From Lophium mytilinum (taxonomy: Eukaryota), in contig MU004182.1 in the NCBI GenBank assembly GCA_010093605.1, positions 2,589,195-2,653,194 on the forward strand: a stretch of 64,000 nucleotides of DNA, read 5' to 3'. Within the stretch, counting starts at the first letter, position 1. The number at the start of each line of letters is the position of its first letter. The notes beneath the pieces were generated by a model. That model ran no database searches. It worked only from the letters and a program-made list of their open reading frames with translations, and was not told the origin of the DNA. A program made the position numbers and the translations under genes. Positions 271-19,170 of the stretch are shown in pieces.

Positions 271-1366
271 CTAGAGATCAGCGTAACTAACTTTGACATC
301 TCTCACAAGGCCGATTGGGTCCTTCAAATCTACCCATCCACAGTAAGGGCTCGATACGGAGTATCCGATCATTCTTTGAATATTTTCCGGCATCTTCTTC
401 ACGTCCTCAATGGGGTTGGCTAGGAACTGATTCTCCTCCTGCAAATACTTATTAACATGATAGGCTCCCGAGTGTAGTGCAGTAAGAAATATACCTGGCG
501 GAGATAGCCACGACACATGAACGAGCCGAAAAGCATTCTCGTTTTATCGGTCGTATTAGCAGAGCCTTTAGCATACATGTCAGTACGAGTCAGGCAGTTC
601 GAAAAATTCAAGACGTCGAGACAAACCTCCATGGAAGCAGCTCGCCAGCATTAAAAACACATCTCCAGGCTGCATGACCGCGTACACAGCTTTGCTCTCA
701 TCCCCTGGCCCTTCCGACGAGTTATCCAGATGCGAGCCGGGGATGAATCTCGTCGCTCCATTGGCAACGGTGGTTTCGGTCGCAGCTAGGAAGATGCCCA
801 ATGCAGTGTCGCGATCCATGGTGTATTGATCAGCGCTAATCTTCGGAAGCCTCGTGTGATGCAAAGCGTCGTCGCGGTGGAGGCTCTGGGCTCGCGCGCC
901 CGGTCCGATTGCAAGGACCGTGGTCGAGTTTAGCTGCGGAACCGAGACGTAATGCTCCTCCTTGTCTCCAATCCAGGTGGTTGTTCTTGTGGTCAGGAAC
1001 TGGTTGCTGATTTCAACGAAGAGGGGGTGCGCGAGCACTTTCTCTGTGTACGAGGGCGATTTTGCTGGTAGTCCGTTGACTCCTGCATCTGCTGTTAATC
1101 ACTGTTTAACGTTATTCCACGTCGGCGAACCTACGACGCGTCTCTGGGGGGAAGAAGTCGCCTTCCCAGGGCACATCGGCGTCGAGGTATGGTTTTACCT
1201 CCTTTACCATTGTGTCGAGGCTCTCGCGATCTACCAGTCCTCGAATAAAGCAGCCGCCATTTCTAGCAATTGATCGCACGACTTTGTCTGCTGAAGCGGT
1301 GCTCGCGTCAAAGCTGTCGACTGTGAAGCCGTCGGTTGGCTTTGGGGTTTCAACGGCGGAAGGCAT
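271..1366 (-). CDS. PhyH-family Fe(II)/2-oxoglutarate dioxygenase (4 exons)
   Basis: ORF pieces join through GT-AG introns (first 1134-1083, giving PETR|RVNGLPAK; others near 626-566 and 494-439). Motifs: WEGDFFP, LHRDD (HxD), NGATRFIPGSH, CFHGGSAN (distal His), GYLRQEENQ. Confidence 0.9.
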
Positions 1367-1965
1367 TTCAGAAGGTGTAAATGATCAAGATTCCACAAAA
1401 TTAGATTGCAATGGTACTGAATGCGCTCGCGGGCCGTTGCTTGGGTATCTTACGAGTTAATTAGAATGAAGGAGTCTTATAAACGCTTTTCCCCTGCTGT
1501 AGTTACCCGGTTCTGGCTTGCATATCTATGCGATTGGTGCTCGTGGTCGCCTGCCCGATGGGGCGGAGGATGTGGCGATCTCTCTTTTGAGCCGATTTAC
1601 TTTATTTTAGCGTGAACCTGCACTCTGCAAGGTGCCTTTGGCAAGCAACAACGAGATGGCCTGAGCAACCATGATCTACGAAAGCTTCAACTGTGTGAGA
1701 TTGAGAGCGGTCTTTACGTAACTTCGCTCCTTACGGAAGAGCCAGACAAAAGTGGTGAACAAAGTCTGCCAAAAGGAGTTCGCCAGAGACATCCGTTTGT
1801 CATCATAGAATATGCTTGCTGGAAGTGTATTCTGCTCATGTTTTTATAATCTAAATACATTCTTGCCCTTTCATTCATTCATGTTAGAAGACCCCCGATA
1901 TTCGTTAACTTCTCCACACCATTCTTCAACTTGTTTCTCTAATTTTCTATCTTCAGAGTCAAGCC

Positions 1966-2883
1966 ATGAGAATCGCAATTGCCGGCGCCGGCGACCTGGC
2001 GCGTTATTTCGTCGAGGAGTTTCTGAACGACGGGCATGAGGTCGTGGTGCTATCACGCAGCCAGAAGCCCTGGTTCCAGCGCAAAGATATCACGTTCCGC
2101 ATCACAGACTACTCGATCCCATCCCTAACCAAATCAATCAACGACTGCGAGGGATTGGTATCCGCAATTTTAGACTACTCCATGGCCAGCGCCACAGTCC
2201 ATCTCGCATTGCTCGAAGCTTGCAAGAATTCCCCCGAATGCAAACGCTTTATTCCTTCCGAATATGCAGGAAACACAGACGAACACCCCGACCAACCCGT
2301 ATTCTACTACGCCAACCACGAGCCGGTCCGCAAAGCATTAATAAAGCAGAAAGAGGTCATGTGGACGCTTTTCAACTTTGGCTGGCTGACTGACTATCTC
2401 ATCTCTCCCGACCTTCGATATATCAAAGATATTGGCGATTTTCACCCTGTCCGTTTGGCCGACAAGGCGTTGGTGATACCAGGAACAGGCGAAGAGCTGA
2501 TTGGCTTCACGGCGGCGCGAGACGTAGCCAAGGCCGTCTCGAAGCTGTTTAATTGTGACAGCTGGGAGGCAATCATTTACGTGTGCGGTCAGACAACGAC
2601 CTGGAACGCTGTTGCGGAGATCCTTAGGAAGCGTGGTGTCTCATTGGAGGTTAGCCACCGGTCCGTGGAGGAGCTAGAGAAGCAGATCTCGGATGCCGAA
2701 TCAGAAGACAAAATCATTGCCGCTCAATATGACATCTGGTCAACTTCCGGAGCTGGGTTTCTGCCGCAGGAGAAATTGAAACGGCAAGCCGCGAAGTACT
2801 TTCAAGGCGTCAAGTTTAGAACTGTGGAGGACTTTCTTGATGATGCTGAGAAGTTGACAGGTTGCCAGAATGTTGCTGTGTAG
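1966..2883 (+). CDS. NmrA/isoflavone-reductase-like NAD(P)H oxidoreductase, SwnR-like
   Basis: Intronless 305 aa ORF. N-terminal IAIAGAGDL Rossmann motif, KRFIPSEY, and GWLTDY...YIKDIGDFHP...IPGTG...ARDV. The resemblance to SwnR is from memory. Confidence 0.85.
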   Translation: MRIAIAGAGDLARYFVEEFLNDGHEVVVLSRSQKPWFQRKDITFRITDYSIPSLTKSINDCEGLVSAILDYSMASATVHLALLEACKNSPECKRFIPSEYAGNTDEHPDQPVFYYANHEPVRKALIKQKEVMWTLFNFGWLTDYLISPDLRYIKDIGDFHPVRLADKALVIPGTGEELIGFTAARDVAKAVSKLFNCDSWEAIIYVCGQTTTWNAVAEILRKRGVSLEVSHRSVEELEKQISDAESEDKIIAAQYDIWSTSGAGFLPQEKLKRQAAKYFQGVKFRTVEDFLDDAEKLTGCQNVAV

Positions 2884-3001
2884 ATACGTCAACTCAGAGC
2901 TGGAAGCCGAATCAGACCTTCGCAGGGTTGATTTCTAGTCGGTTTGATCGGAGAGACCGAGTTAATGTTCCATGGTTGTGGTACTAGCACATGTGAATCT
3001 T

Positions 3002-4750
3002 TCATGTGAGAAGAATGTCAATTTTCAAGTCCTCTGCCACCTGTTGTTGCAAAACATCCTCTTCAGGGTTAAGGTCTCGACGATGCCATATCTCTAGAAT
3101 AAGGCCTTCCACGCATGAGGTTGCGCCAACACCTCTGTTGGCTTTCTTAGCAAAAACCTGCATGCATCGACGTCGTAGTTCATCATCCTCGGCTTCGCAA
3201 GCAGTCACATATAGTGGCCACATAAGGCCATCCATCGCAGAATTGTCGTGAAGGTCCTCGACCGCTTCTAGATGATATAGACATTGTTCCACTAGATGTT
3301 GGATTTCTCGCGGCGGCGAGCGGTGTAGAGACCGCTCGTAGTGTATCATGCAAGCATAATACCACGAGCAGGCATGGTGTCGTGTAACCTTCTCCAATGC
3401 TGGGTCGGGGGACGGGAATCGCGTGGTGCTGGGATTCGCCAAGAGCAGGGTGTTCCGCAGTACTACCAAATCCTCATCCGTGGGTCGATGGGCTGACATA
3501 GAAAGCCTGCTTACATCGAAAATGGCTCTCAATACAGGTTTAGTAATCCCAAAGAGCTTTTCTAGGCAGTAGTCATTGGCTGGGAAGCTCGACGTGGCAG
3601 ATGACATGATATCCATTTCCCAGTCGTCTTCAAAGAAGGAGGACGAGCTAGCTGCAAACTGGGTGTGCTGATCTTGCGAATATCCGATGATCTCCACGCA
3701 ATGGAAGAGCTGGCGCAAGATGAGTCCCCCTTGACTCTCGTTCCACTTCCCATGCAGAGAGTTAATCCAATCTCTCCCTCCACGGAGATGGATGCGCCAT
3801 TGGCATGAGCGAGCCGCGACAATATCGATTGAAGTCATCAATATCATAGAAGCGAGAATAGCCTCGTGTTGACCGTGCGAGTCTTCCATCATACTTTGAC
3901 GCAGATATCGAAGTCCGGCTTGGTGATGTTTCGCGGCTATGGCCTCATCGTGCTCATCAGGTGGGTCTTGCAATTGAGACCTGTTGAATGCAGCAAAAGC
4001 GTAGATAGAATGCAGCAAAGCACAATGTCCCGGAAGCCTATGGGCAGACGCTGCGGATTCTAGCACTAGAGGAATAACAACTTCGCGGAAAGGATTGTCG
4101 GGATGGTTGGTTGAGATCATCAGTCCACTGGCAGAAGTGACCCAGAATCGCAGCAGCTGGCGTTCTTCTGCAGACGACACGGAGAGAAATGGGAGTAAAT
4201 AGCGTGACCAAAGGTGCTTAGACGTGGGATAGCATGTTTCAGGGTCGAAAGGATCTCCAGGTGACGCCGAACAGCTGTCCTGTGCTGACGTTGAGTCTGC
4301 TTCAGAGGGCGAGGTGACATCAAGTTGGAGTCCAGGTTCATTATCCCCGACTGTGGGAGCGCATGCGAAGACGGTATAGGGACCCTCGACCAGCTCCATA
4401 CCGTCATCAACTTGGGGCGAGTCGAGTCGCTTGAGGATGGCGCTGAGATAGAGCTCGTCGAAGATGGGATTCCTCATGTCCGCATCATCCAGCATCAACC
4501 GCCGTTTCTGCTTTACATTCTGCAGTTCGCGTCCTGCACCGTCACCGTTGCCGGCCGCGTCGTCCCATACAAGCCGGATTTCGTAGCCCTCGCAGGGCCG
4601 ATCGAGTCTGGTGCACCGGTTGCAGGAAGGGCGCGTAGCATCGCATTTTACGCCACGTGAACGACAGGTCCAGCAGCCCACATATGTCTTGGTCCGCTTC
4701 ACAGCGGTACGAGCACGTGCATCTGGTCGGGATGCTTTAGCTCGAGGCAT
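3002..4750 (-). CDS. Zn(II)2Cys6 transcription factor with fungal_trans_2-type C-terminal domain
   Basis: GCWTCRSRGVKCDATRPSCNRCTRLDRPCEGY binuclear cluster, plus WRIHLRG and LMWPLYVTACEA motifs. Confidence 0.92.
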   Translation of the reverse strand: MPRAKASRPDARARTAVKRTKTYVGCWTCRSRGVKCDATRPSCNRCTRLDRPCEGYEIRLVWDDAAGNGDGAGRELQNVKQKRRLMLDDADMRNPIFDELYLSAILKRLDSPQVDDGMELVEGPYTVFACAPTVGDNEPGLQLDVTSPSEADSTSAQDSCSASPGDPFDPETCYPTSKHLWSRYLLPFLSVSSAEERQLLRFWVTSASGLMISTNHPDNPFREVVIPLVLESAASAHRLPGHCALLHSIYAFAAFNRSQLQDPPDEHDEAIAAKHHQAGLRYLRQSMMEDSHGQHEAILASMILMTSIDIVAARSCQWRIHLRGGRDWINSLHGKWNESQGGLILRQLFHCVEIIGYSQDQHTQFAASSSSFFEDDWEMDIMSSATSSFPANDYCLEKLFGITKPVLRAIFDVSRLSMSAHRPTDEDLVVLRNTLLLANPSTTRFPSPDPALEKVTRHHACSWYYACMIHYERSLHRSPPREIQHLVEQCLYHLEAVEDLHDNSAMDGLMWPLYVTACEAEDDELRRRCMQVFAKKANRGVGATSCVEGLILEIWHRRDLNPEEDVLQQQVAEDLKIDILLT

Positions 4751-5197
4751 GACGAGAGCTGATCATGAGTATCAGGCGGCGTCCGACGGAAAACCTTGAG
4801 AAGGGTTGCTCCCGATCCTATAGTAGCGAAGGTGACTACTACCGGTGAGCGCCTGATGGAGAGAAGAAAAGACACAAGGCATGTTCAGGGTAGAAGGTCG
4901 GGCGGCAGAGATGCAAGGAGAAAGTGTCCACGAGGCTGTCGTCATGGCCACCGGCTGGATGAGGAGGTCCAAATAGGCTTGCGTTAGAGCAATTCAGAGG
5001 CTCGCTGTCGCCTGCCGATTCTGTCCCCTGTCTGGCACTCGCTTCCAGTGCGATCATTCGGCCCGAGATAAGCTGAGAAAGTTACGGGCTCGTTGTCGCC
5101 TACCAATCCTGTGCTACATATCCCTCCTTGTCGAAGCCGGGCCGGGATACGATTCTCGGAATCGTCGTTACCTGCCGCTTCTGTCTCGCCCTTTTCT

Positions 5198-6630
5198 ATT
5201 TGTCGGGTGCAAAACAGCACGGAATCCTTGGCACAACTCTCTGCCACACCAAAATAATTCTTAGGAATACTAACTATAAGATTTATTAATAGAATTAACT
5301 CTAAAAACTAGGGGACTGATAATCCTACACCGGGTTTTTCCTCCATGTACACCCGTTTTCTCCTCCACATACACCCATTCACGTCTGATCTTCTAATTGG
5401 TCCGGAGAGATCCTCCAAGGCCTCCAATTTGCTCGCTTAGGCTTACCACTAATTCCAAATGCTCTCTCTAAGTGCGGCGTGGCCACAAGCAATCACAACC
5501 TTATCTTTAATCTCTGCCTTTATAATACACCTCTTACTATAGCCCTCCAGCCGCGCCCGCCACGGCTATACAACAGCCTAGAGGAAGCCGCAGCCTCCAG
5601 GGCTCGGAATCAATTAATTCAATTACACCTTCTGGTTAATCTCGGGCCAACAGTAGGGACGTGCCACCGTGCACGGTACTATATGGGGTTCGAGATCAAC
5701 TCAATCGCACCCTCTGGTTGATTGATTCCGAGCCCTGGCAGCCTCGGCCTCAGGCAGCGCCAGCGCTGCTTCCTGATAAGGAGCTCCAATATTAGAAGGT
5801 ATTGTACGAGCAGTATATAGAGGGGTGGATGGATTAGGATAGCTAGGGAGGCGCGGCGGCGATGTAGGGGGGCTAGATTTAATGCGGAGAGGCCGTAATA
5901 AGGTCAGGATTTAACTGTTTTAGTATACTTATAGGTATATAGGCATGTAGGTAGTAATACAACAGCCTATATACTCTATAGGAAACGGGAAGTATATATA
6001 GTAAAACAGGTATGCTATATAGCCCTGCTAAACTACGGCCTTACGTACGGCCTTAATAGGCTGCTAGAAATAGTAAGAATACACGATGGAATGGGAAGAC
6101 TATGCAACCTTACTATTTTAAGCGCCGGAGCTTCCTCCAAGGCCTCTGGACCAATTAGAAGATTAGACGTGAATGGGTGTATATAGAGGAGAAAACAGGT
6201 GTACGTGGAGGAAAAACCCGGTGTAGGATTATTAGTCCCTAAAAACTAATAGAGTATAGATATAAGCTACTAGAGTATATTACCTAGGCTTTCCCTTTTA
6301 TTAATTATTTTTAAGGGCGTAAATCTAGTTGTAGTAAGAAGATATAATAGGTGCCGCCCGCGGAAGATACCGCCCCCTGCTGCCCTATATTGCACCCCTG
6401 CTATACCCCTGCCGCCCGCCTTTTCTATACCTTTCTTTACCTAGAAATAACTTCTCTTTCTATAAATATTTAGAGCTTATACTTTTAAGATAAAGTAGGT
6501 AGTATATAAAGTAGCTTCTAGAGAAGTTTAAAGGTAATAACTCTATGTTTATACCTTTTAGTTGTCAGAAAACGTGTGGTGTGGCAGAGAGTTTTGCCAA
6601 GGATTCCGTGCTGTTTTGCACCCGACAAAT
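5198..6630. repeat. 54-bp inverted repeat pair (5198-5251 / 6577-6630) bracketing an AT-rich RIP-like segment
   Basis: atttgtcgggtgcaaaacagcacggaatccttggcacaactctctgccacacca matches the reverse complement of 6577-6630 with 1 mismatch. Confidence 0.9.
5311..6240. mobile_element. Non-autonomous TIR DNA transposon relic (Mutator-like), RIP-mutated
   Basis: ~95-bp TIRs (5311-~5405 / ~6147-6240, GGGGACTGATAATCCTACACCGGG...) differ mainly by transitions. Flanking direct repeat (t)aaaaacta at 5302/5303-5310 and 6240/6241-6248 is an 8-9 bp TSD. Interior is TpA-rich. Confidence 0.85.
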
Positions 6631-6908
6631 GGGGAACTCAATTCCCACCTGCAGCACAGCGCAATCCTACTCCACTTCACTTCAGTTCTGTTCCCCTATG
6701 CGACTGAGGACCCTGGATACCCCGGATGATAGCCGACCAGAACACATTAATTCCATTCGTTCCTACCCCACGTGTCATGGGTGGCAATGAATAGCACTGC
6801 GCCTTGCAATTGGTGGAAGAAACACGGGTGGATTTGCTAATGAATCAGATAACCCAGATGCTCCTCAATCCTCCTACCGCCTCGCGAGCGTTTCCTCATT
6901 TAGGAGTC

Positions 6909-7346
6909 TTAATTCGGCAGTACTGCGTAGGCTGTAATCTCGACTCTCGCCCCATCCGCTAGAGCCTCAACTCCAACGCCCGCCCACGCGAATCTGTTCT
7001 TTCCCAAGAACTTTTCAACCACCACTTCCAACGCCTTGTCCGCCGCCGCATCCAGCCCGACATGGTAGCTTGTCATCTGGTAAACTGAATTGAATCCATC
7101 CGTGACACCGGCCGCTGCTAAAGAGTCGACTACGTTTTGAAACGCCTGCAGATACTGCTCTGTCAGGTCTGTCGGCAGTTTCATGTCCGCCGTGTAGCCT
7201 GTTTGGCCTGCCGTTACTACCGTTCGCATGTTTGCTGGGAGGACCACGGCGCTGGAGATGTGATATGTATCGCTCAGCTTTTCCCCTAGACCGGGGACGT
7301 TGAAGCACTTGACGCCGTGCTTGTTGAGAGGACTTGAATACTCCAT
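6909..7346 (-). CDS. Rid/YjgF/YER057c family protein
   Basis: 145 aa with VVTAGQTG, QAFQNV..L.AAG and GVEALADGARVEI motifs. Confidence 0.85.
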   Translation of the reverse strand: MEYSSPLNKHGVKCFNVPGLGEKLSDTYHISSAVVLPANMRTVVTAGQTGYTADMKLPTDLTEQYLQAFQNVVDSLAAAGVTDGFNSVYQMTSYHVGLDAAADKALEVVVEKFLGKNRFAWAGVGVEALADGARVEITAYAVLPN

Positions 7347-7809
7347 GTCGATTGAGTGGGAAAGGTTTATTTGAAACGAGATAGCGTGAGGTGTTTATGG
7401 CGAAGGTCGAATAAGATGTTGGTAGTCAAATACAAGAGCATCGTGCATGGCAGTATATAAGCTGTAAATGGAAAGGAACTCCAACTAATGCCGCCAGGCA
7501 GTCGACAACGAGCACTGGAGTTCTCCACATCTCTCTCGATAACACCGTAGCTTATGCGATTGTACTTTCTCAAGGCGGTTTTGGATTGCAATTCCTAGCC
7601 GAAAGGCGATGACCAGAGTAGCTCATGTATCCGGCAACTGTCAACGAGCATCTTTTCGAGCCTTCGCATGTAACTCCTCCCACCCAACAGCCCTAAAAGG
7701 CACACATACGAATGTTCCAGAGAGTCCATTTCCATTATTTAGGAACGTCTGTCTCTCCATCTACATAGTTGCTAGCACTACCATCATCGACTAGACACAC
7801 AAAATAACC

Positions 7810-8845
7810 ATGTCTTCGACCAAACTCTTCGAGAACGATCTGAAAAGACCTCTGCCCAAGGTCGAAGTCTTCGACAGTGCATCTGTCAGCCCAGAACAAA
7901 TTGTGGCCGCCCTCACCAAAGCTGGTGGCTGTGTAATCAAGAATGCCGTATCTCCTAGCGACCTATCTCTTATCCAAAAAGATGTTCAGCCCTTCCTCGA
8001 TGCCGACAAACCATGGGAAGGCGACTTCTTTCCACGCGAAACACGCCGAGTCAATGGGCTAGCCGCCAAGTCCAAAGTCTTCATGGAGAAGATCGTCTGC
8101 TACGAGCCCTACCAATCTGTCTGTTCGAAACTTCTCTCGAGCACAACGAAAAACTACCTAGGCCAAGATCTTCAAGTCAGCACCAGTCAACCCCAGCTCA
8201 ACAACACTATCGTCTTCGCAATCGGGCCGGGAGCTAAGCCACAGCCGTTGCATCGCGACGACATGATACACCATCGAGTCTTGAAGCAGATGAATGCAGA
8301 GGATTATGTGATCGGGCAGGACACAGGCATTGGCTTTTTTGTGGGAGGCAGGAAGACAACCAAGGCGAATGGAGCGACCAGATTCATTCCCGGTTCGCAC
8401 CTCTGGGACCATGATACACCACCAAGTGAAGACCTCACCTTTTACGCGGAGCTTGATCCCGGTGACGCCTTCGTTATGCTGTCTTCTTGCTACCATGGAG
8501 GATCGGCGAACACGACTGAGGATGAGGTACGATTAGTGTACAGTTGTTTCATGACGAAAGGCTATCTCAGACAGGTACGTCTTAGCTTCCATATCGTATC
8601 CTACAGCAGGATAACGGCCAATGAAGCCTCTCCCCAGCTGAATGTCTGGCGCTAATCTGCAACTGTCCAAATAGGAGGAGAACCAGTACCTGAACAACGA
8701 CCCTGAAAAGCTAAAGGAACTCTACGATGATACTATGCTCAGACTCATCGGGTATAACCTTAGTGCACCGTTCCTAGGCTGGATCAAAGAGGGCCATCCT
8801 CTGGCCGCCCTGGGACGACAACAGCCACTGGGAGACATGTATTGA
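7810..8845 (+). CDS. PhyH-family Fe(II)/2-oxoglutarate dioxygenase (2 exons, intron 8575-8674)
   Basis: WEGDFFPRETRRVNGL, LHRDD, NGATRFIPGSH, CYHGGSAN. The GTACGT...GCTAAT...ATAG intron restores YLRQ|EENQYL; TGA at 8843-8845. Confidence 0.92.
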
Positions 8846-9827
8846 GAGACTGGGCGCACAAACCAACTGGTGGGAAATTCCACTCGTGTATATCTAAGGA
8901 GGCTAGAGATAGAGCAATGACTTGAAACGAGATTAATTTGTGTTTGCTGCGGTTGAAGCATCCCCGATCATGTTTTATGAATGATCTGTAAAAGAAGTAT
9001 CTCCACTAGTCTGTGAAACTTTCAGAGATTGTAGCATATTCGAACACAATACGACGCTTTGAATCGGAGATCGGCTGCCGCTTTTCGGAAGAGCGTGCTA
9101 AACGATCTCCTTGTCGACAGTAAAGATCAGAATACATGTGACTAGACCGCCATGTCGTTTTGCTATGTTTGTGATCTGGGGTACGATCTGATATACCACG
9201 GCTCTTGACTATCCTCTTGCAGGAAGTTTGAGATGAGCAAGCCCAACCCAAGAATGCCATGCACTTACTTTGATCCTTCGAGGGAAACGTACAGCGATGG
9301 TAGACTGATTGACAGAGTATTGAGATAAAAGACATGAAACGAGATTTCAGATGAAATGATCTAGACGAAGTGGGGGAGAAGTGCGGGGAGAGCTCGGGGG
9401 TCCGGATTCAGTAATCGACAGCGACTTTGGAGCTACTTTGTCTAGACTAGTCTACTGCAGCTTAGATTCTACAGGCGGGATAAACTAGATCGATTCTGAT
9501 AAACCATTCGTAATCTCGCTTCATCGGAAATGGGGTGCATGGACTGACAGAGCGACTAGAAGGGAAGGACTGTATATTTTTCTCTGAAGGAAGAGAGTAT
9601 TGGAAAGCTATAGCGAGCTTATCCGGGTTTCAATTCTCTCAATGTTCAAACGGTTTTTCTCTCTGCTAACAATCTATAGATAGAGGACTGCATCGCACAG
9701 ACTTTCCAGCTTCGCACTCCTCGACCTGTATCCTCTTGACTCTTTTTCTCGTCTACCATCCTGTCAGACCGGATATCATCCTGAACAATTCGGAAGCGTC
9801 ATATCCCAGACATCACCACTGCCCGCC

Positions 9828-10595
9828 ATGACGGTCAAAAACCTGCAAGGCCTCAGCGCCATCGTCACCGGAGGCTCCAGAGGCATAGGCGCCGGCATCG
9901 CGCAGGAGCTCGCAAGCCGTGGTGCCAACGTCCTCATCACCTACCAGAGCGCCTCATCTCAAGCCGAAGAAGTCGCCTCCAAGATCCGAGCCCTGGGCAG
10001 CGAAGCGCTGATCGTGCAGGCCGCTGGCACAGACAAGGAAGCACCCGCTCGGATCGTGCGTGCCGCAGTAGAGAAATGGTCTCACATCGACATCATCATC
10101 AACAATGCCGGCGCCGGCGACGACTGCCTGCTCAAAGATCTCACATACGACCTGTGGGACAAGATCCTCAACACGAACCTACGCATGGCGACCTTCCTGG
10201 TGAAGGAGAGCATGCCGCATCTTGGCAAGGCGCCGCGCATTGTGAATATCTCGTCCGTTATCGGGCGCATGGGTGGCTCGTGGGCAACAGCGTATTGCGC
10301 GTCGAAAGCGGCACTTGAAGGGGTCACGAAGGTGTGGGCTGCGGAGCTTGGACACAGTCACAACGCAACGGTGAATTGTGTGAATCCGGGGCCGGTGGGT
10401 ACGGATATGTGGTTGCGCGATACCGATGCCGCTGTGTTGGCGGAATGGGATACTAAGATGAAGGAGACGCCGGCCGCGCCGAGGATTGGCACTGTGGATG
10501 ATATTGCTCAAATTGTCGCATTTTTGGCTAGTGAGGAGAGTCGATGGAGTACGGGTAGCACTGTTAATGCTAACGGGGGCATGTGCTTTGTATGA
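9828..10595 (+). CDS. Short-chain dehydrogenase/reductase (classical SDR)
   Basis: TGGSRGIG, NNAG, NISS, YCASK catalytic motif and VNPGPVGT; intronless. Confidence 0.93.
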   Translation: MTVKNLQGLSAIVTGGSRGIGAGIAQELASRGANVLITYQSASSQAEEVASKIRALGSEALIVQAAGTDKEAPARIVRAAVEKWSHIDIIINNAGAGDDCLLKDLTYDLWDKILNTNLRMATFLVKESMPHLGKAPRIVNISSVIGRMGGSWATAYCASKAALEGVTKVWAAELGHSHNATVNCVNPGPVGTDMWLRDTDAAVLAEWDTKMKETPAAPRIGTVDDIAQIVAFLASEESRWSTGSTVNANGGMCFV

Positions 10596-11006
10596 GGTAA
10601 CTTGGTGATGGTGGATATTTCGTTACATAGAATAGACAAGCATTAGAATACCCCTTAAATCGCCTCAATGAAGTTAGCGTTAATCCTCCAAGCTCGGTTG
10701 GGCTTCGTTTCTGTCTGCTGGCTTACTCAGCAGCTCCATCTTCCCTCCTGTCGCTCAAGAGGTTTGTTCCTCATTCTCATTAAAAAAAAAACTTTTGGGC
10801 CCACGTTTCGTTTGAGTCGATTCCTGTGTGCCTGGCGCTCACTACAGATATAACGATGAGCAAGTAGCCGGCACTAAGAAGGATATCAGACGTGCAAATC
10901 ACGTTCAAATCGAACAGCCGATTGATCTGGTATTGCGTTTTCGTTCTATAAAACCGGGCGTCAAGTCATCGACACCCTCTTTGCAGATACTGGTATGTCA
11001 TAATAT

Positions 11007-12644
11007 CTAATGAGCCTTATGCCACACCTCCCCCGGAATCGCATCCTGATATTCCACGACTTCGTTCAGTGCTTCCCTGATAATCCGAACGCCCCTTTCC
11101 AACTGCTCATCCGTCATCACCATGGTCACTCCCATCCTCAGGCGCCCCCCCAACGGGTATAGTAGCAGTCCTTTACTCAAGCACAAGCCTCCGATCCTCC
11201 TAGCCGTCACCCTCCCTTCCGGGTTCTCTCGAATCGGAATGCTGAAATCTGCGCCTCGAGCTTGGATGTCAGCTACATATGGATGCTGCCTCAAATCGGT
11301 CGTCAACTCCAGGAACTTCTCGCCGAGCTGCCTTGCTCGTTCCGCCATGTTCTCCTCGTCCAGGACCTTCAGTGCCGCCTCAGCAGCTGCGATTGCCATA
11401 GGCGTGTGTGCGAACGTCGAGCCGCTCTCATACGGTCCCACAACATTCATCATTACGTCGTCTCCCAGGACGAACGAGGCCGGGTACGCGCCGCCGGTCA
11501 TGGATTTGCCGACGACGAGCAGATCAGGGCGGACGTCTGGGCCCAGATGGTTGAAAGAAAAGAACTTTCCGGTCTTGCAGGATCCCATTCGCACTTCGTC
11601 GGCGATGAAGGGGATGTTGTACTTCTTGCAAAGGTCATAAATCCCCCGGGCGAAGGAGACTTCTTCTTCATAAGTGCTAAGTACGGAAACTTGTTAGTGA
11701 TACACTATCGGAGGGATAGAGTAGGCGGTACGTACTTTCCCGTATTGCGTATGCATTCTAAAATGATGCCTCCCACGCGCGCATGGTGCTCTGCAAGACA
11801 GGCCTCCATGTCTTCCAGATGGCCATACCGTAGCAGCGTCTTCGTCGACGGATTGACGTTAGTATGTTGGGCGCTGTCGAGGCCATAAGCTGTGAGAGCT
11901 GTATCAGTTTCATTCCTAGCATGAGCACATCCAGGCTGAAGTACCTGTTCTGGCGGGGCTAGGGTCTTGTAGATTCCAGACCCCTGAAGACAGTCCGTGG
12001 TAGCTGTCCGAGACAGCTAGAATCAGTACCTCCTCCGCGGGAATGCCTCTGACCTCATAAGCATGACGCCTGGTGATCTTGCAAGCCAGATCAGCTGCCT
12101 CCGATCCGGTGACCATAGCGGAGATCTTGTCGTATTTGAACCTCTTGCACATCATTTCAGCAAAGACGGGCCAACGCGTGTTGTGCGTTGAAGTGTTTAT
12201 GAGGTAGGCTAGAGACCATGTCAGCCCTCATCTGTCAACGTATCTCACTGGATGCGGCCTACCTTTGTTGAGCTGCTCCACCATCGCTGCGACTATCTTC
12301 GGATGGCAGTGTCCTTGATTGCCGGCGCTGAACATGCAAATGAAATCGAGGTATTCTTTGCCATCCACATCCTATGTCACTTCAGTCCTGGATTCAACAG
12401 CTAAAGAGCTTTGGCGGCAATTTTCACGAACCCATAGTTGCGCACCCTTGCCTCTATCCATGAACCCAGGCAAGGGCGTAAAGCCACCAACGGTGTACTC
12501 CGCTTCAGTATCAAGCAGCTGCTGTGCTCTCCTTGACAGCACAATCTGCTTCCGTTGGACTGCAACAGGCGCCATATGACTGCTGTCCATTGGTGTGAGA
12601 TTCACGCCAGCGTGATCGACTTCTTCGACGGTGAGTGATGCCAT
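11007..12644 (-). CDS. Class-III PLP aminotransferase, divergent ornithine aminotransferase paralog (multi-exon)
   Basis: Spliced product contains [62 protein letters not shown] (PLP lysine) and ESGSTF. Confidence 0.9.
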
Positions 12645-13373
12645 TTTGCAGGTTGAAGTTGTATCGTGGTTAGGGATGAATCATAGAGATGAATGCTAAA
12701 GAAACGCAGATGCCTCGAGTATGAAATCCTATAGATATATATACTGTGGACTAAGATAGCTCGCTATCGAGACTTGCATCCTGGCGCTTTTTCGGTCGTG
12801 ATCCGTGCTCCGTTATGAGCATCGATGGAGCAGTGCCTGGGATGTGACAAAATGGTAAGTAACAGCGATGGCTTGGCGCGCTGTCGATTTCCCGAATCAG
12901 CGGGCTCAGCACATAATGGAATTAGCTGGGCTGGAATAACATGACCCAGTTAGCGAGGCACCGCTAGAAGCTAATAACAAAAAGCAGATAAAGGAGATTG
13001 CCTGAGTTCTGGGACCCCCGGAGATCATGACATGGCTATTATGATCACTGATTAGTAGATCTTGACCAGTTTAAAACGTCATATTAGCTTTCTGAGCTGC
13101 AGTCAGATCACAGATGTAGTTTGATAGCTACGGGCACATACATGTAGAACATTCAATTGAGCGTAATTTTGATCCTCTATATACTGAACCTACGCCACGC
13201 TGAAGCAAGCACCGCAATACATTCAATCCAAGACCATACCCTCTGATATTCGAGTCAACTAATAAAGACACTGTATATTTTAACAAGTCGTGAATCCGCT
13301 TCGTAACTTCACAGAAAGTACATAAACATCTAGGAGTAACGGTCCGATCTCCAACTTCCCACCGACTTCCCGC

Positions 13374-15031
13374 TTAGAAACTCTCCTGATTCATTGCCAC
13401 CGGCTCTGTGTATCTAGTCTTCGAATATGCGAACCAATTGACCACGGCGCAGAAGAACACACCGCCTGTGACAGCAGAGGCGTAGTTCATGGTCGACGCG
13501 GTCACTGGCACGTATGAGGGGAAACAAAGCCAGACGGTAATGAAAGGCATCCAAATAATCGATATGATGTTGAAGTAGATGCCGCTGCGACCTAGATTGA
13601 AGTTGCGCTTGGAAGGAAATGCATTCGCTCGGCCGGCATAGAGCAAGCTTCCGACGACCAGGATGTAAGATAAGTAGCACATGACGATGCCTGCGCCGAG
13701 AATCGCGTTTATTGCAGTGGTTGAGCCGAGAATGATAGCGCCTATGGCGACTATAAGTAAGACACCGGATGCAACCGCGTTGACGGGAAGCTCGTAATAT
13801 GTGTTGACTTTGGACACCCAGCCGGAGAGTGGCAATGCTCCCTGTCGTCCCACAGACCACAGAATCCGAGAAAAGCTGGTCAACAGACAGATGGCCGCAC
13901 ATAGCATGACGAGTATGTAGACCAGAATTGCGATGATGGTAAGGGCCTGGGAGTCCAAAGAATCCAGTAAAAGCTGAGCAATCGGCTGCCCTCCGATAGG
14001 GGCCAAGAGATTGGCCGGGCTGATAATGCAGAACATATAGACCAGAACCAGCGGCAATCCTGCGAGTGCGCTCATGAGAGCGCTTCCGAACATGACTCGG
14101 GGAATGTTCCTCTCTGGGTGTGGGATCTCATCAGCGAGATGAGCGGCGCCCTCGAAACCATTGACAGCAGTAGCACCAGGCAGCAGACCGAGGAAGAAAA
14201 CTACGCCGTCCGACTTCCATCCAGTCATGTTGACGAGATCGGCAAAAACGAACGATGCGGATTGTTTCGGGTGAGTGCGGACTAGGAGCACAATGAGCAC
14301 GAAGAGTGCGCCAGTGTTGATGAAGACTACCATGCTCTTGAGCATGAATGGATATAACTTGAAAAGTGGTACGTTGAGAGCGAAGGCGACGGCTGCCGAG
14401 CCAATGTAGAGGACATAGTATTCCCATGGTTGCGCAACGAATGTCGTTTTGATCACCGCTACTAATGCCCAGATGAGCTGAGAGGCGAGAAGGCAAGTCG
14501 CAGCTGTCAGGAAAAAGTATGCAGCGCTGACAATCCAAGCAGCTAGATAGCTGAGGCCGCGTGCGTATTTCTTGTGTGCCAGGACTGAAATCCAGTAGAT
14601 TTGACCTATAGTAGGAATTTGCGGTCAGTGATTGCCTCGCTCAGGGGTAACTTTCCGTTCTTGAAGTCTTTTAAAACAACTGGAATTGAGAGGATATTCG
14701 TACCTGACGAGTGAGGGTAGACAGCGGCAATCTCAGCCAGCGATAGGCAAACGCAGAGATTACAGCCCACCGCCAAAATATACCCATAGATGAAGACAGG
14801 ACTTCCGCCTACTCCAATGACACTTGTAAGGTATGCGCCAACAGCAAGCGGCGTCGAAGTCAATGAGTACTGGAGACCCAAACTGCTCCAGAGACTGAAG
14901 GACTCATTCAACACTTGCGGTGCTCCAACCTCGCGCGTAGCACCGACGTCTATATCCAATTGACGATGGGGTTCGGAAACATCTTTGCCGTCATACAACG
15001 GCATCTTGTGGTCCTTTGAGGTGGTAGACAT
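13374..15031 (-). CDS. APC-superfamily amino acid/choline/GABA permease (intron 14703-14606)
   Basis: SLAEIAAVYPHSS|GQIYW, GFEGAAHLADE and PVTASTMNYAS motifs, with many hydrophobic helices. Confidence 0.9.
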
Positions 15032-15830
15032 TTCGTATAGCAGGAGAATGATATTCAAGGTTGAAGGTTAAGCGGAGATGATATCTTAAGCAGGAGGCAA
15101 GACAAGACATTTGAGCAGCGTAAGTATATACTCACGGTCTATCATTGATACCACGCGATATGGAATGAGATCTTAGGAGATTGAATAGACCTAGCGTATC
15201 TTTGCTCGCCAGTCTTAGAATATGCCCGCTGTAATTCGTTGCACACATCCCGCGCTGGGAAGAGACATCGAAAAGGCAGGCGACAACGACGCGAAAAGCT
15301 TGAAAGCTCACCTTGAGAACTGCGACGCGAGTTTCAGCTAGCTCTATAGACGAAGCTTGATAGCGATAAGGAGACTAAGAAATAGGACTGTTCCGGCAGT
15401 CGTGAGCGAGAGGCGCGCGATAACACACGCCACTCCCAATGCGGGCCTCAGATGTGTGCAGGGCCTGGATGTGCCCTATTCACGATACTACTCGGGCCTT
15501 TCCAGCCCCCTGCGTAGTTCGTGTCCCGGATGGCGTCAAACGATAGGCGATAAGGACTTCAAAATCCTTCTTCTTCTTTAAGCAACAAGAGGCGACCAAC
15601 AAAACTGCCCTTGTAGAAACTCTGGGAAACTGACAGCGCGAGACTGGTGCGACGATGGGTTCTACAACCAGGGCAACGCGAATTCTTCAGCAGACTCCTA
15701 GACTATGCACCATTTGTCGTCCGTGCCTGGAAGACTCTTCGGCCATGACCATAGGCATATAACCCACGTCTCCGACTTTCAGATGCATTGATCGATCAGG
15801 ATTTTCATACTTGCGTACTCTCGTCCCAAA

Positions 15831-16917
15831 ATGTCGAACATGTTGAAGTAAGCATTGCCGTGAGCCCCAATTCGAAGCACAGTTCTCCAAGCTGATCAGT
15901 CGCAATTTTTAGTCTCCAAGGCCGGGTTGCCATCGTCACAGGCTCATCTTCTGGAGTTGGTCGTGCTATTGCACTCGCACTGGCAAGCGAAGGCGCGTCA
16001 GTCGTATGCAGCGATTTGACGCACGACTTGCGCCCGGGAGGATATGAGACCGTGACAACTTCGACACACGAGCTGATCGCGAAGACAGGCAAAGCTATCT
16101 TCAAGGAGACTGATGTTAGCTCGCCGCAAGATGTGGAAGCGCTGGTCGCATCCGCTGTTGCCGAGTTCGGCAGGCTAGATATGTACGTGTATCAACATCA
16201 GTTCTGTTCAAGTCGAACAGGCCGGGATGAGAGAGGTAGGATAGCTGATATTGCGAAGTTTGGTCAATAATGCAGGAGTCTTCTGTGGGCAAAACAAGAT
16301 TGCAGAAGAGCCCTTGGAAGCCTTTGAAAAGACCATGGTAGGGCAATTTGTAGGAATGGCGTGATGACAGAAGCGAAGTCTAATCGTTCGCAGGCCATCA
16401 ATACCCGAGGGACCTTTCTCGGGATGAAGTTCGCCATCGCACAGATGATGAAACAAGAACCACGATCTACCGGGGATCGTGGCTGGATTGTGAATATCTC
16501 CTCGATTGGCGGCCTGGTAGGCCTTTCAATGGAACGTAGGTTGGCCAATTTCATCTCTACTTATTTCCTGGCTTCTCTTCTCTTCCCTACCTTCATAAAA
16601 ACATTAGCTAACGCTCATAAGCATCCTATTGTGCGAGCAAAGGCGCTGTGACCAACCTAACCCGACAAGTAGCGCTGGACTATGCCCCTCATAAAATCCA
16701 TGTCAATGGTGTGTGCCCCGGCTTCTTGAAGACGGCAATGGTTCGATCTGCGCTCGAAGATGCAGCTCTCAACGAGGAGCTGCATGCTGCGTCACCATGG
16801 CCGCATTTAGGCTTGCCCGAAGATGTGGCGAAGGCGGTGCTGTACCTTTCTGGCGATGGTGCTAGTTGGGTGACAGGTGTAATGTTGAATGTGGACGGTG
16901 GGTACTGTACAAGGTAG
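15831..16917 (+). CDS. Short-chain dehydrogenase/reductase (5 exons)
   Basis: Spliced: MSNMLN|LQGRVAIVTGSSSGVG ... RLDI|LVNNAG ... NISS ... P|SYCASK ... VDGGY. Confidence 0.88.
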
Positions 16918-17234: not shown

Positions 17235-19170
17235 CTACAGCTTCATGCCAAGCGCCTTATGCACCCTCAACGCTTGCCTAATGCTCAAATCTAGCATGAT
17301 TTCCTCACTCCCACCCGGAATGGCATACGCCCTAACATCCCGATACAACCGCTCTACCTTCGCACCCTGTCCGCCGCGCGAGTAACTTAGGCCGCCGAAG
17401 ATCTGACTAGCCTCTCGTGCACAGAACTCGAATGTGGTAGTGCTCTGCGCCTTGAGCGAGGCAATAGCGCCGCCGAGCTTCAACATAGCCTCCATCTCGC
17501 CCATCTTCTGGCACTGGTAGATGAGATTCTCGAGCCAGTTGTAAGAAGCCTCGATTTGACGAGCCATGTGAGCGAGCTTGAGGCGGATGACGGGATGATC
17601 GATGAGCTTCTTGCCAAAAGTGCGGCGCTTGTGGGCGTACTTGATGGATTCTTCGTAGCAGACGCGGGAGAAGCGGAGACACTGTATGATTATGCCAATG
17701 CGTTCGTGATTGAAGTTTGTCATAATGACTGAAAAAGGTTAGAAGTGTGATCGTTCTGGTAGGCTTTGGGAGTAAGGAAAGGGGAAATGGGAGTGAGCAA
17801 AGTTGGCGACGCACCTTTGAAACCTTGGTTCTCCTTCCCGATGAGGTTCTCAACGGGAACCTTCACATCCTCAAAGGTAATGTATGTAGTACCACTGCTC
17901 CATACACCTTGGCAGTCCATCTTGCGGGTGGAGACACCGCCGAAACTGCGCTCAATGAGGAGTACGGAGACGCCGTTCATGCCCTCACCGCCCGTGCGGA
18001 CGGCAGTGGTGAAGTAATCGCACCAAATGCCGTTGGTGATCCATTTCTTCTCGCCATTGACGATATAGTGTTTTCCATCTTCAGAAAGCTTGGCTTCGCA
18101 TGTGAGATTGGCGACATCGCTTCCCGCGTCTGTCACATGTTAGTAATGCAAGAAGATACTAGGAAAGTCAGCAAAACTTACCAGGCTCCGTTATCGCGAG
18201 ACAGATGCGCTTGTTGCCATTAAGAATCTCAGGTACAACGCGCTTGACGACGTCCTTCTTTCCGAACTTGACAAGCGGTGGGCAGCCAATGCCAAAACCA
18301 CCGATGAGGTTCCATACGAGCCCGCCACTGCCCGCGCGCGAGATCTCGTCCGTGAGCAGCATCTCGTGGAAGAGATCCCACTTCTCCGGCGCGACGCTCT
18401 TTACGCGCTGCTCTGTCAAGTTTGTTGGATAGTGCACACCCATGAGACCGGCTAGATAACCCTTCTCGCCCATAGCTTTGTAGATGCTGTCAGGCACCTT
18501 ACGGCCCTCTTCCCACTCGGTCACGTTGGGCATTATGTCGTCCTCGACCCATTGGCGGACTTCGGCGCGGAGGTCGGCGTGGGACTGATTGAAGAAGGGC
18601 GAGTGGTACTACAGGTGGGTGTCACATGTCAGAGACTGTTTTACTTGTATAGGCAGAAATTGGAGAGGAAGGCGTTTGTAGAGAAATGCTCACAGATTGG
18701 TACCAAGAGGGGTCCGCATAGGGCACTAGGTCGCCGAAGGGATCCAATGCCTCCGCCTCCTCCTCCGCAGCGGCTGTAGGCATCGGGGCGACTGCGCCGG
18801 ACTCAGCGGATGGCTTTACAACATCCGGTTTCTTCTCCGCAGGCGGCGTAGTTGGGGGTGTTGGAGGCGCTGCCTTCGAGTCTAGAGAGCCGACCTGCAA
18901 CTTCTTCTGGTATTTCTTGAGGATGCTCTCGTTGTGGTACTTCCAGAACTGCTTGGAAGCGTCTTTTCCAGCAACACGCTGTAGGACTGGTTATATTTGT
19001 CAGGATTTGCAGCCAAAGTGTGTGGCATGAAGAGAGCACGTACTCTTCTTGCCGCCAGGGTGTTCGTCTTGGAACTTTGTCAGATCGTATACGTCCTCGT
19101 TGACGACGACCCAGAGGCTGTCGGTCTTGTTGTGGGAGGCCACATCGGCTGTAGAGAAGCGTTGCGACAT
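17235..19170 (-). CDS. Acyl-CoA dehydrogenase with N-terminal cytochrome b5 domain
   Basis: EHPGG heme motif in exon 1; CLAITEP|DAGSDVA, NGEKKWITNG, QIFGGL and AIPGGSEEI across exons. Confidence 0.93.

Follow-up and report, generated by a model that had tools for sequence, protein, structure and literature searches.

What does a compact row of oxygenase, reductase, aminotransferase and permease genes do in a fungus if no scaffold synthase stands among them? The question is raised by a stretch of Lophium mytilinum DNA of 64,000 nucleotides (GenBank assembly GCA_010093605.1, contig MU004182.1, positions 2,589,195 to 2,653,194 of the forward strand), here termed the window, whose positions 271 to 16917 hold nine such genes. 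The nine genes make up a genuine metabolic cluster in which no scaffold synthase occurs, and from comparison with other fungi we read it as a conserved core cluster with a lineage-specific extension. The core appears to be an uncharacterised unit conserved in Pezizomycotina. Its predicted members are one or two PhyH dioxygenases of the SwnH/NvfE type, an NmrA-like reductase of the PIP type, a Rid-family protein of the tryptophan (Trp) type, a permease of the choline/GABA (gamma-aminobutyric acid) type and a Zn2Cys6 regulator. In the Lophium lineage, the core probably works with a short-chain dehydrogenase/reductase (SDR1), a class-III aminotransferase, a permease of a second type and a further short-chain dehydrogenase/reductase (SDR2). 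The favoured explanation, tentative at a probability of roughly 40%, is that the cluster takes up a small amine from outside the cell and modifies it, either to assimilate its nitrogen or to detoxify it. The products and substrates of scaffold-less fungal clusters are largely unknown because the usual genome-mining tools miss them.

Nine genes without a scaffold synthase

Pfam was run on all 94 stop-to-stop open reading frames (ORFs) of at least 70 aa that start before 20 kb. In the rest of the window, it was run on 87 of the 166 ORFs of at least 85 aa, the longer ones being picked by eye and 79 shorter or nested ones omitted. Within the first 20 kb, the search returned exactly the nine families that an earlier note, made from the letters alone, had named, each where the note had placed it. 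Exon models were built by eye from the sequence, with the short GT..AG introns of fungal DNA, and all nine translate without internal stops. Together with Pfam, these models bear out the picture of nine contiguous genes with three divergent pairs (PhyH1/NmrA, Rid/PhyH2 and APC permease/SDR2). The region is bounded by the stop codon of PhyH1 at 271 and that of SDR2 at 16917, and the sole gap in the row, of 2.1 kb, lies between the transcription factor and Rid genes. The features are as follows.

271 to 1366, minus strand: PhyH1, predicted Fe(II)/2-oxoglutarate dioxygenase, 308 aa; exons 1366-1135, 1082-627, 565-495 and 438-271; Pfam PhyH 4.3e-17 (583-1098, minus)
1966 to 2883, plus strand: NmrA-like NAD(P)H-binding protein, 305 aa; single exon; Pfam NAD_binding_10 1.4e-7 and NmrA 2.6e-6 (1909-2880, plus)
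3002 to 4750, minus strand: Zn2Cys6 transcription factor, 582 aa; single exon; Pfam Fungal_trans_2 1.6e-45 and Zn_clus 5.5e-9 (3005-4762, minus)
5198 to 6630, no strand: inserted repeat element with inverted ends, not a pathway gene
6909 to 7346, minus strand: Rid-family protein of the Trp type (Rid7/Rid4-like), 145 aa; Pfam Ribonuc_L-PSP 5.7e-14 (6912-7394, minus)
7810 to 8845, plus strand: PhyH2, predicted Fe(II)/2-oxoglutarate dioxygenase, 311 aa; exons 7810-8574 and 8675-8845; Pfam PhyH 3.5e-22 (7795-8652, plus)
9828 to 10595, plus strand: SDR1, classical SDR, 255 aa; single exon; Pfam adh_short_C2 5.4e-51 (9684-10592, plus)
11007 to 12644, minus strand: class-III aminotransferase, 469 aa; exons 12644-12432, 12371-12263, 12208-11945, 11889-11736 and 11676-11007; Pfam Aminotran_3 9.8e-39 (11010-11693, minus)
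13374 to 15031, minus strand: APC-superfamily permease, choline/GABA (gamma-aminobutyric acid) type, 519 aa; exons 15031-14704 and 14605-13374; Pfam AA_permease_2 2.7e-37 (13377-14624, minus)
15831 to 16917, plus strand: SDR2, 267 aa; exons 15831-15847, 15913-16182, 16259-16337, 16394-16535 and 16622-16917; Pfam adh_short / adh_short_C2 in three ORFs (15896-16914, plus)

Two of the models can be compared with Lophium mytilinum proteins. Exon 1 of PhyH2 (255 of 311 aa) is 100% identical to protein P0001, which is likewise 311 aa long, and the aminotransferase model equals the deposited protein P0121 except for 23 extra N-terminal residues. Contigs from three runs bear on the splicing. Run X3, guessed to be RNA, has 0 letters differing from the window in the listed pieces; runs X4 and X5 come from a related organism and are 90-99% alike to the window. 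Spliced contigs of X4 and X5 cover parts of all nine genes, and PhyH1 intron 566-626 is removed in both. Three of the four SDR2 introns (15848-15912, 16338-16393 and 16536-16621) appear as GT..AG joints in X3 contigs, and a single unbroken X3 contig over 1865-5158 spans the transcription factor gene. At the permease, contigs of all three runs stop at 14603, beside the intron. Run X3 gives no cover of 7338-9338 (PhyH2), and its contigs are unspliced over PhyH1 and the aminotransferase; no inference about expression was drawn from this.

The earlier note had also remarked that the window holds no polyketide synthase (PKS) or nonribosomal peptide synthetase (NRPS), and Pfam agrees: the scanned ORFs of the 64-kb window yielded no domain typical of a PKS, an NRPS, a terpene synthase or a prenyltransferase. 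They likewise held none of the KS, AT, A, C and thioester-reductase domains of a swnK-type gene. NCBIfam gave no equivalog for any of the eight protein pieces tried, and the ESM Atlas returned generic names alone for the aminotransferase and the NmrA-like protein.

Two dioxygenases of the NvfE/SwnH subfamily

The closest solved structures to PhyH2 are those of NvfE (1.3e-54), SwnH1 (2.2e-46) and SwnH2 (3.7e-31). The alignments run over the full length and share the stretch LRxEENQ[YF]L, whereas the next solved group found with PhyH2 exon 1 (TlxJ, PrhA, AsqJ and others) is much weaker, at 3e-17 or worse. PhyH1 is 46% identical to PhyH2; searches with its exon 2 gave 9.8e-31 for NvfE and 9.7e-15 for SwnH1, and the exon retains LHRDD and CFHG. 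Sequence similarity thus assigns both proteins to the NvfE/SwnH1/SwnH2 subfamily. In the PhyH family, an HxD...H motif forms the iron triad and an arginine (Arg) binds 2-oxoglutarate. The residues H148, D150, H229 and R241 are invariant across 24 PhyH2-family sequences, and PhyH1 and PhyH2 should be active Fe(II)/2-oxoglutarate dioxygenases because the iron triad and the Arg are kept.

Within this subfamily, the two proteins appear to be paralogues of SwnH1 and SwnH2, not orthologues, because PhyH2 has 119 relatives in other fungi, among the matches listed and with its own protein excluded, that are 55-87% identical. Their genera include Exophiala, Capronia, Talaromyces, Penicillium, Aspergillus, Podospora and Fusarium, as well as Lachnellula, Hyaloscypha, Zasmidium and others. 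A literature search for a PhyH-type pipecolate hydroxylase in Fusarium found no paper.

Bacterial PhyH relatives (30-36% identity) lie in mixed surroundings. Across five metagenome loci with 41 ORFs, the neighbours include an SDR and a hydrolase; acyl-CoA genes, an aminotransferase, a kinase and SDRs; and permeases, an aminotransferase and a P450, and these five neighbourhoods have no theme in common. On one bacterial metagenome contig (L011, 9935-15147), a PhyH relative is followed by a class-III aminotransferase, a kinase of the choline-kinase/APH type and two SDRs. This operon resembles the enzyme mix of the window and might hint at related chemistry.

A conserved core in other fungi

A metagenome scan with the PhyH2 alignment returned 80 loci, four of them at 42% identity or more and the rest at 29-36% and bacterial-looking. 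The locus L001, a fungal metagenome contig of 15.2 kb, carries in order a PhyH of the EasH/PrhA type, NmrA, the regulator, a permease, Rid, PhyH2 and a DDE transposase. Its proteins are 69% (NmrA), 50-54% (regulator), 58% (permease), 63-64% (Rid) and 73% (PhyH2) identical to those of the window. The NmrA, regulator, Rid and PhyH2 genes stand in the same order and on the same strands in both, and the L001 permease occupies the place of the window's inserted repeat. The grouping goes beyond chance, since this unrelated fungal contig repeats five of the genes with their order and orientation preserved. A second locus, L002, has a D-amino-acid oxidase gene, an extra PhyH and an AT-rich stretch, followed by SDR1 (72%) divergent to a 51%-identical PhyH. 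On a third, L009, a 44%-identical PhyH lies next to an MFS transporter with none of the other cluster genes.

The extra PhyH of L001 and L002 (677-1597 and 2479-3339, respectively) is a third kind, of the EasH/PrhA/AusE type, with a match of 5.3e-66 to EasH. The two metagenome copies are 65% identical. This type is not found in the window, where PhyH1 stands beside NmrA instead.

Relatives of PhyH2 and of the permease also appear to share contigs in deposited genomes. Five PhyH2 relatives and five permease relatives are on contigs of equal sizes (12265, 47332, 146479, 422726 and 1063191, the last from Grosmannia clavigera); equal size was taken to mean the same contig, and only the sizes 12265 and 47332 imply that the genes are close.

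Reductases, Rid protein, aminotransferase and permease

The AlphaFold model of the NmrA-like protein has a pLDDT of 97.5. Its best Foldseek matches are pinoresinol/lariciresinol reductases, eugenol synthase and isoflavone reductase (TM 0.67-0.77, 14-21% identity), with 7csa, 1qyc, 2qx7 and 2gas among the leading entries and E-values down to 2.7e-16. The model points to the NADPH-reductase fold of the plant PIP family; in sequence, there is a weak match (2.3e-6) to A622 isoflavone-reductase-like proteins. Of seven long relatives inspected, four are gene models that have been fused with a neighbouring transporter or transcription factor. The two SDRs are 33% identical to each other, and both are ordinary classical SDRs; the best solved matches of SDR1 are FabG-type reductases (3.5e-46).

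The closest solved match of the Rid protein is YjgH of E. coli. At the site where RidA has its catalytic Arg (Arg105 in E. coli TdcF, Arg107 in the human protein), the window's protein has a Trp; the same residue occupies this position in YjgH and in the R-to-W chain 8qom, and the L001 orthologue retains it. According to sections of Niehaus et al. 2015 (PMC4433059), Rid4 and Rid7 proteins have Trp at the position of the RidA catalytic Arg, and Rid7 of Salmonella performs no imine hydrolysis. A RidA-type imine/enamine deaminase was considered for the Rid protein and rejected on account of this Trp. The earlier note had proposed a cyclic imine/amine pathway; the argument for an imine is weakened, since the step from Rid to imine chemistry does not follow where Trp replaces the catalytic Arg. 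In prokaryote genomes, the 35 pattern matches for the Rid protein included 0 relatives.

The solved structures closest to the aminotransferase are acetylornithine and ornithine aminotransferases. The model and 28 homologues (P0121-P0148) have YHG[LTV] and DEVRMG and are without the QGE motif. We take YHG[LTV], DEVRMG and the loss of QGE to be replacements of R180, Q266 and E235 in the numbering of human ornithine aminotransferase. These proteins appear to form a fungus-only ornithine-aminotransferase-like clade with an altered active site. Against TIGR01885, the equivalog model for ornithine aminotransferase, the last exon alone (222 of 469 aa) scores 148.7 bits with a cut-off of 378.4. The clade is also present in Aspergillus, Penicillium, Nectriaceae and others; one homologue, from Aspergillus lentulus, is an 820-aa model with a low-complexity C-terminal part that has no Pfam match. 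When 185,579 prokaryote species genomes were scanned, 82 of 133 stretches were relatives, at 20-28% identity, and the motif [FY]I[AS]DE[VI]RMG occurred in 0 of the 80 loci kept.

The permease matches TIGR00907 at 3.3e-74, exon 2 alone (409 of 519 aa) scoring 250.5 bits with a cut-off of 598.3. Its relatives are labelled by their sources as choline permease, nitrogen mustard permease or HNM1, and the protein is predicted to belong to the choline/GABA transporter subfamily.

Comparison with known pathways

The earlier note had likened the region to the swainsonine (SWN) cluster. Like the window, SWN clusters (Metarhizium, Alternaria sect. Undifilum, Slafractonia and others) contain two related PhyH dioxygenases of the same subfamily. 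They also share with it an NmrA-like reductase, an aminotransferase and a choline-transporter-like permease, SwnT, the last in some clusters only, as their make-up is given in parts of Cook et al. 2017 (PMC5473758). The window's NmrA-like protein is likened to SwnN and SwnR by family, not by sequence comparison. In the sections cited, SwnH2, SwnH1 and the imine reductase SwnN jointly hydroxylate and epimerise the indolizidine via an iminium (10.1101/2024.09.26.615303), and SwnA is described as an aromatic-type aminotransferase (PMC5473758) or a lysine 2-aminotransferase (10.1101/2024.09.26.615303). Unlike SWN clusters, the window is without swnK, and its aminotransferase is of class III and not of the SwnA kind. 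A Zn2Cys6 regulator specific to the region, two SDRs and the Rid protein set it apart as well, and its dioxygenases are nearer to NvfE than to SwnH1 and SwnH2. The region is therefore not a SWN cluster; the likeness consists in the same dioxygenase subfamily used with a reductase. Of the toolkit comparison, the shared families and the SwnH/NvfE-subfamily dioxygenases stand, whereas the aminotransferase is a class-III enzyme unlike SwnA. Pfam confirms the differences that the note itself had listed, namely another aminotransferase class and a transcription factor and SDRs of its own.

NvfE, the novofumigatonin endoperoxide isomerase, is the best solved match of both PhyH1 and PhyH2, with the stretch LRQEENQYL in common. 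However, NvfE acts on a large meroterpenoid within a terpenoid cluster, and the window has no terpene or polyketide gene in the scanned ORFs.

Iminosugar and azasugar routes are scaffold-less and begin with an aminotransferase and an oxidation, as set out in parts of PMC9092360, PMC11844564 and PMC8382821. The bacterial three-gene azasugar clusters with GabT1, Yktc1 and GutB1 resemble the window in having no scaffold gene; they lead to cyclic imines and amines, with the aminotransferase and alcohol oxidation steps first. The azasugar aminotransferase consensus SGNxFRxxxFPN...PxPYCxRC, as given in the part of PMC8382821 cited, was found in 0 of 29 sequences (the model and its 28 homologues). 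The phosphatase domain of these clusters has no counterpart among the 94 ORFs, while SDRs are present. A piperidine, pyrrolidine or iminosugar-like substrate, as the earlier note had proposed, is shown by none of these results, and the azasugar consensus is missing from the aminotransferases. The fungal nectrisine genes necA-C presumably encode a likewise scaffold-less route with an aminotransferase and alcohol oxidation.

Fungi use omega-amino acids by means of a GABA permease, a GABA transaminase and a Zn2Cys6 activator, for example through the UGA genes of yeast. The window resembles these systems in its choline/GABA-type APC permease, class-III aminotransferase and Zn2Cys6 regulator. Unlike them, it also encodes a Rid protein, a pair of dioxygenases and three enzymes of the NAD(P)H type, and its aminotransferase is ornithine-aminotransferase-like, not a GABA transaminase. 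A literature search by keywords, by the locus tags of four PhyH2 relatives (in main texts) and by species name (in the titles and abstract openings of the papers listed) found nothing on this gene set.

Proposed import and modification of a small amine

Under the favoured explanation, the permease would bring in a small exogenous nitrogen compound, and the two Fe(II)/2-oxoglutarate dioxygenases would hydroxylate it or desaturate a C-N bond. The NmrA-like protein, SDR1 and SDR2 could then reduce or oxidise the resulting carbonyl or iminium groups. The class-III aminotransferase would pass the amino group to a keto acid, freeing the nitrogen for assimilation, and the regulator would turn the genes on in the presence of the compound. 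The gene families, intact catalytic motifs, splicing and partial synteny are observations; proposals built on them are the nature of the substrate, the sequence of reactions and a direction that runs from uptake to breakdown. The variants of the cluster would have a common logic of Fe/2-oxoglutarate oxidations, NAD(P)H redox steps, nitrogen removal or addition, a dedicated regulator and a permease of the amine type. In the window, nitrogen transfer would fall to the aminotransferase, and a D-amino-acid oxidase gene lies nearby on L002.

Import of an amine is favoured because the core is broadly conserved (55-87%), the permease is of an uptake type and NmrA relatives lie beside transporters and regulators. 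In our judgement, pathways for nutrients are more often spread this widely than those for rare toxins.

Several findings weigh against this explanation. The permease is compatible with either direction, because SwnT, a broadly similar transporter, belongs to a cluster for biosynthesis, as far as the cited account of SWN clusters goes. The 3 kb at the right of L001 contain the DDE transposase but neither an SDR nor an aminotransferase. Among 28 matches, there are two close orthologues of the aminotransferase (Xylariales sp. AK1849, 82%; Capronia epimyces, 75%), and the next match is at 51% or below. The Capronia epimyces aminotransferase gene, A1O3_06068, lies on contig 2519779, apart from the PhyH2 relatives A1O3_07796 and A1O3_07798 of that species, which are on contig 1638037. 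The PhyH2-linked permeases elsewhere are 50-58% identical to that of the window and may be a different paralogue; the nearer permease relatives (64-91%) are in Mytilinidion, Setomelanomma, Ilyonectria, Lachnellula and Xylariales. A shared promoter motif was not found in six promoters searched for 7-9-mers and CGG/CCG pairs, in which five 7-mers each occur in 4 of the 6 regions. The intergenic region of Rid and PhyH2 has no conserved block in common with that of L001.

Co-conservation, on which the earlier note had made its cluster depend, is accordingly partial: the core keeps its order and strands on L001 and SDR1 stands beside a PhyH on L002, whereas the aminotransferase is patchy and the permease similarity is 50-58%. 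The aminotransferase, permease and SDR2 are best described as a lineage-restricted part, whose tie to the core is plausible.

Alternative explanations

The same genes could instead make a small polar compound, a hydroxylated cyclic amine or iminosugar-like molecule, without a PKS or NRPS, which is unlikely but the most credible alternative. The aminotransferase or an SDR would give an amino-carbonyl that cyclises to an imine, and the NmrA-like enzyme would reduce it. The dioxygenases would then hydroxylate or epimerise the ring as SwnH2, SwnH1 and SwnN do, and the permease would export the product. Membership of PhyH1 and PhyH2 in the SwnH1/SwnH2/NvfE subfamily favours this route, as does the teamwork of SwnH2 and SwnH1 with an imine reductase on an indolizidine (sections of 10.1101/2024.09.26.615303). 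Further points in its favour are that SWN clusters can include a choline-transporter-like SwnT (PMC5473758, in part), that iminosugar routes open with an aminotransferase and an oxidation (PMC9092360 and PMC11844564, in part) and that the aminotransferase is distributed as patchily as a gene of specialised metabolism would be. However, the azasugar consensus is in 0 of the 29 aminotransferases, the 94 ORFs hold no phosphatase domain, the Rid protein is without the catalytic Arg, and the core is very widely conserved.

It is improbable that the region is made of two modules, with PhyH1, NmrA, the transcription factor, Rid and PhyH2 (perhaps with SDR1) as one unit and the aminotransferase, permease and SDR2 as unrelated neighbours. 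Some of the points held against amine import would be explained by such a division: the unlinked Capronia epimyces aminotransferase, the lack of an aminotransferase and SDRs on L001, the difference in type between the window permease and the PhyH2-linked ones, and the absence of a common motif from the six promoter regions. Aminotransferase-like and permease relatives are also on contigs of equal size in Xylariales sp. AK1849 (2719902) and Oidiodendron maius (57942), and are ten locus tags apart in a Pseudogymnoascus. Yet the genes are tightly packed with short intergenic regions, the APC permease and SDR2 form a third divergent pair, and it is chemically sensible for an amine-handling enzyme to stand next to oxidoreductases and a permease for amines. 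Each of the nine genes also has contigs in X4 and X5, which are silent on expression level.

More doubtful still is a wider idea in which the core is a widespread SwnK-independent pathway for hydroxylated cyclic amines. This toolkit would be the source from which the swainsonine cluster drew its transporter and tailoring enzymes, and the Lophium aminotransferase would feed or drain the pathway. If this were true, a role could for the first time be assigned to the Trp-type Rid protein, namely action on an imine without a carboxylate.

Very improbable is the view that a larger classical cluster, with its scaffold gene left of position 1, has its tailoring end in these nine genes: the window does begin just 270 bases past the PhyH1 stop codon, and a DNA-run contig extends 4169 bases further left (known by alignment coordinates alone), but no scaffold gene accompanies the related cluster on the 15.2-kb contig of L001, and neither Lophium nor Mytilinidiales is named in the main text of a 2022 survey of swnK holders (PMC9030584).

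Whichever direction the pathway takes, be it the favoured import of an amine or its synthesis, the cluster is real, occurs widely and includes three groups of proteins whose activity is unknown. The core recurs in several ascomycete classes. Its dioxygenases are the nearest relatives of the enzymes that hydroxylate and epimerise the livestock toxin swainsonine, and they stand beside a Rid subfamily without known activity and an aminotransferase clade with a signature motif that none of the 80 retained prokaryote loci contains. The identity of the compound would give functions to four uncharacterised protein groups together and would also show the origin of the swainsonine tailoring enzymes.

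Flanking genes and the inserted element

Beyond the nine genes, Pfam identified GH92, Na/H exchanger, UCH, MFS transporter, Vps5, DUF2828, CENPU and other families in the rest of the window. The next gene rightward, convergent to SDR2, encodes an acyl-CoA dehydrogenase with an N-terminal cytochrome b5 domain (17235-19100, minus strand). Four of its introns appear as joints in X3; it looks like a housekeeping gene and not a cluster member. The genes beyond it are ordinary, and none of the scanned ORFs there encodes a scaffold synthase. About 6 kb right of SDR2 is a GH92 glycoside hydrolase gene (23103-25329, plus strand; catalytic domain 4.5e-143). GH92 enzymes are alpha-mannosidases, and swainsonine-type compounds inhibit mannosidases, although no link to the GH92 gene here has been shown.

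The element between the transcription factor and Rid genes (5198-6630, about 1.43 kb) is bounded by inverted repeats of 54 bp with 98% identity (5198-5251 and 6577-6630). Inside these lies a second inverted pair of 96 bp with 93% identity (5312-5407 and 6144-6239). Pfam found no match within the element, and the DNA-run assembly breaks up there into short contigs with many alternative joints. The element is probably a multicopy, non-autonomous DNA transposon.

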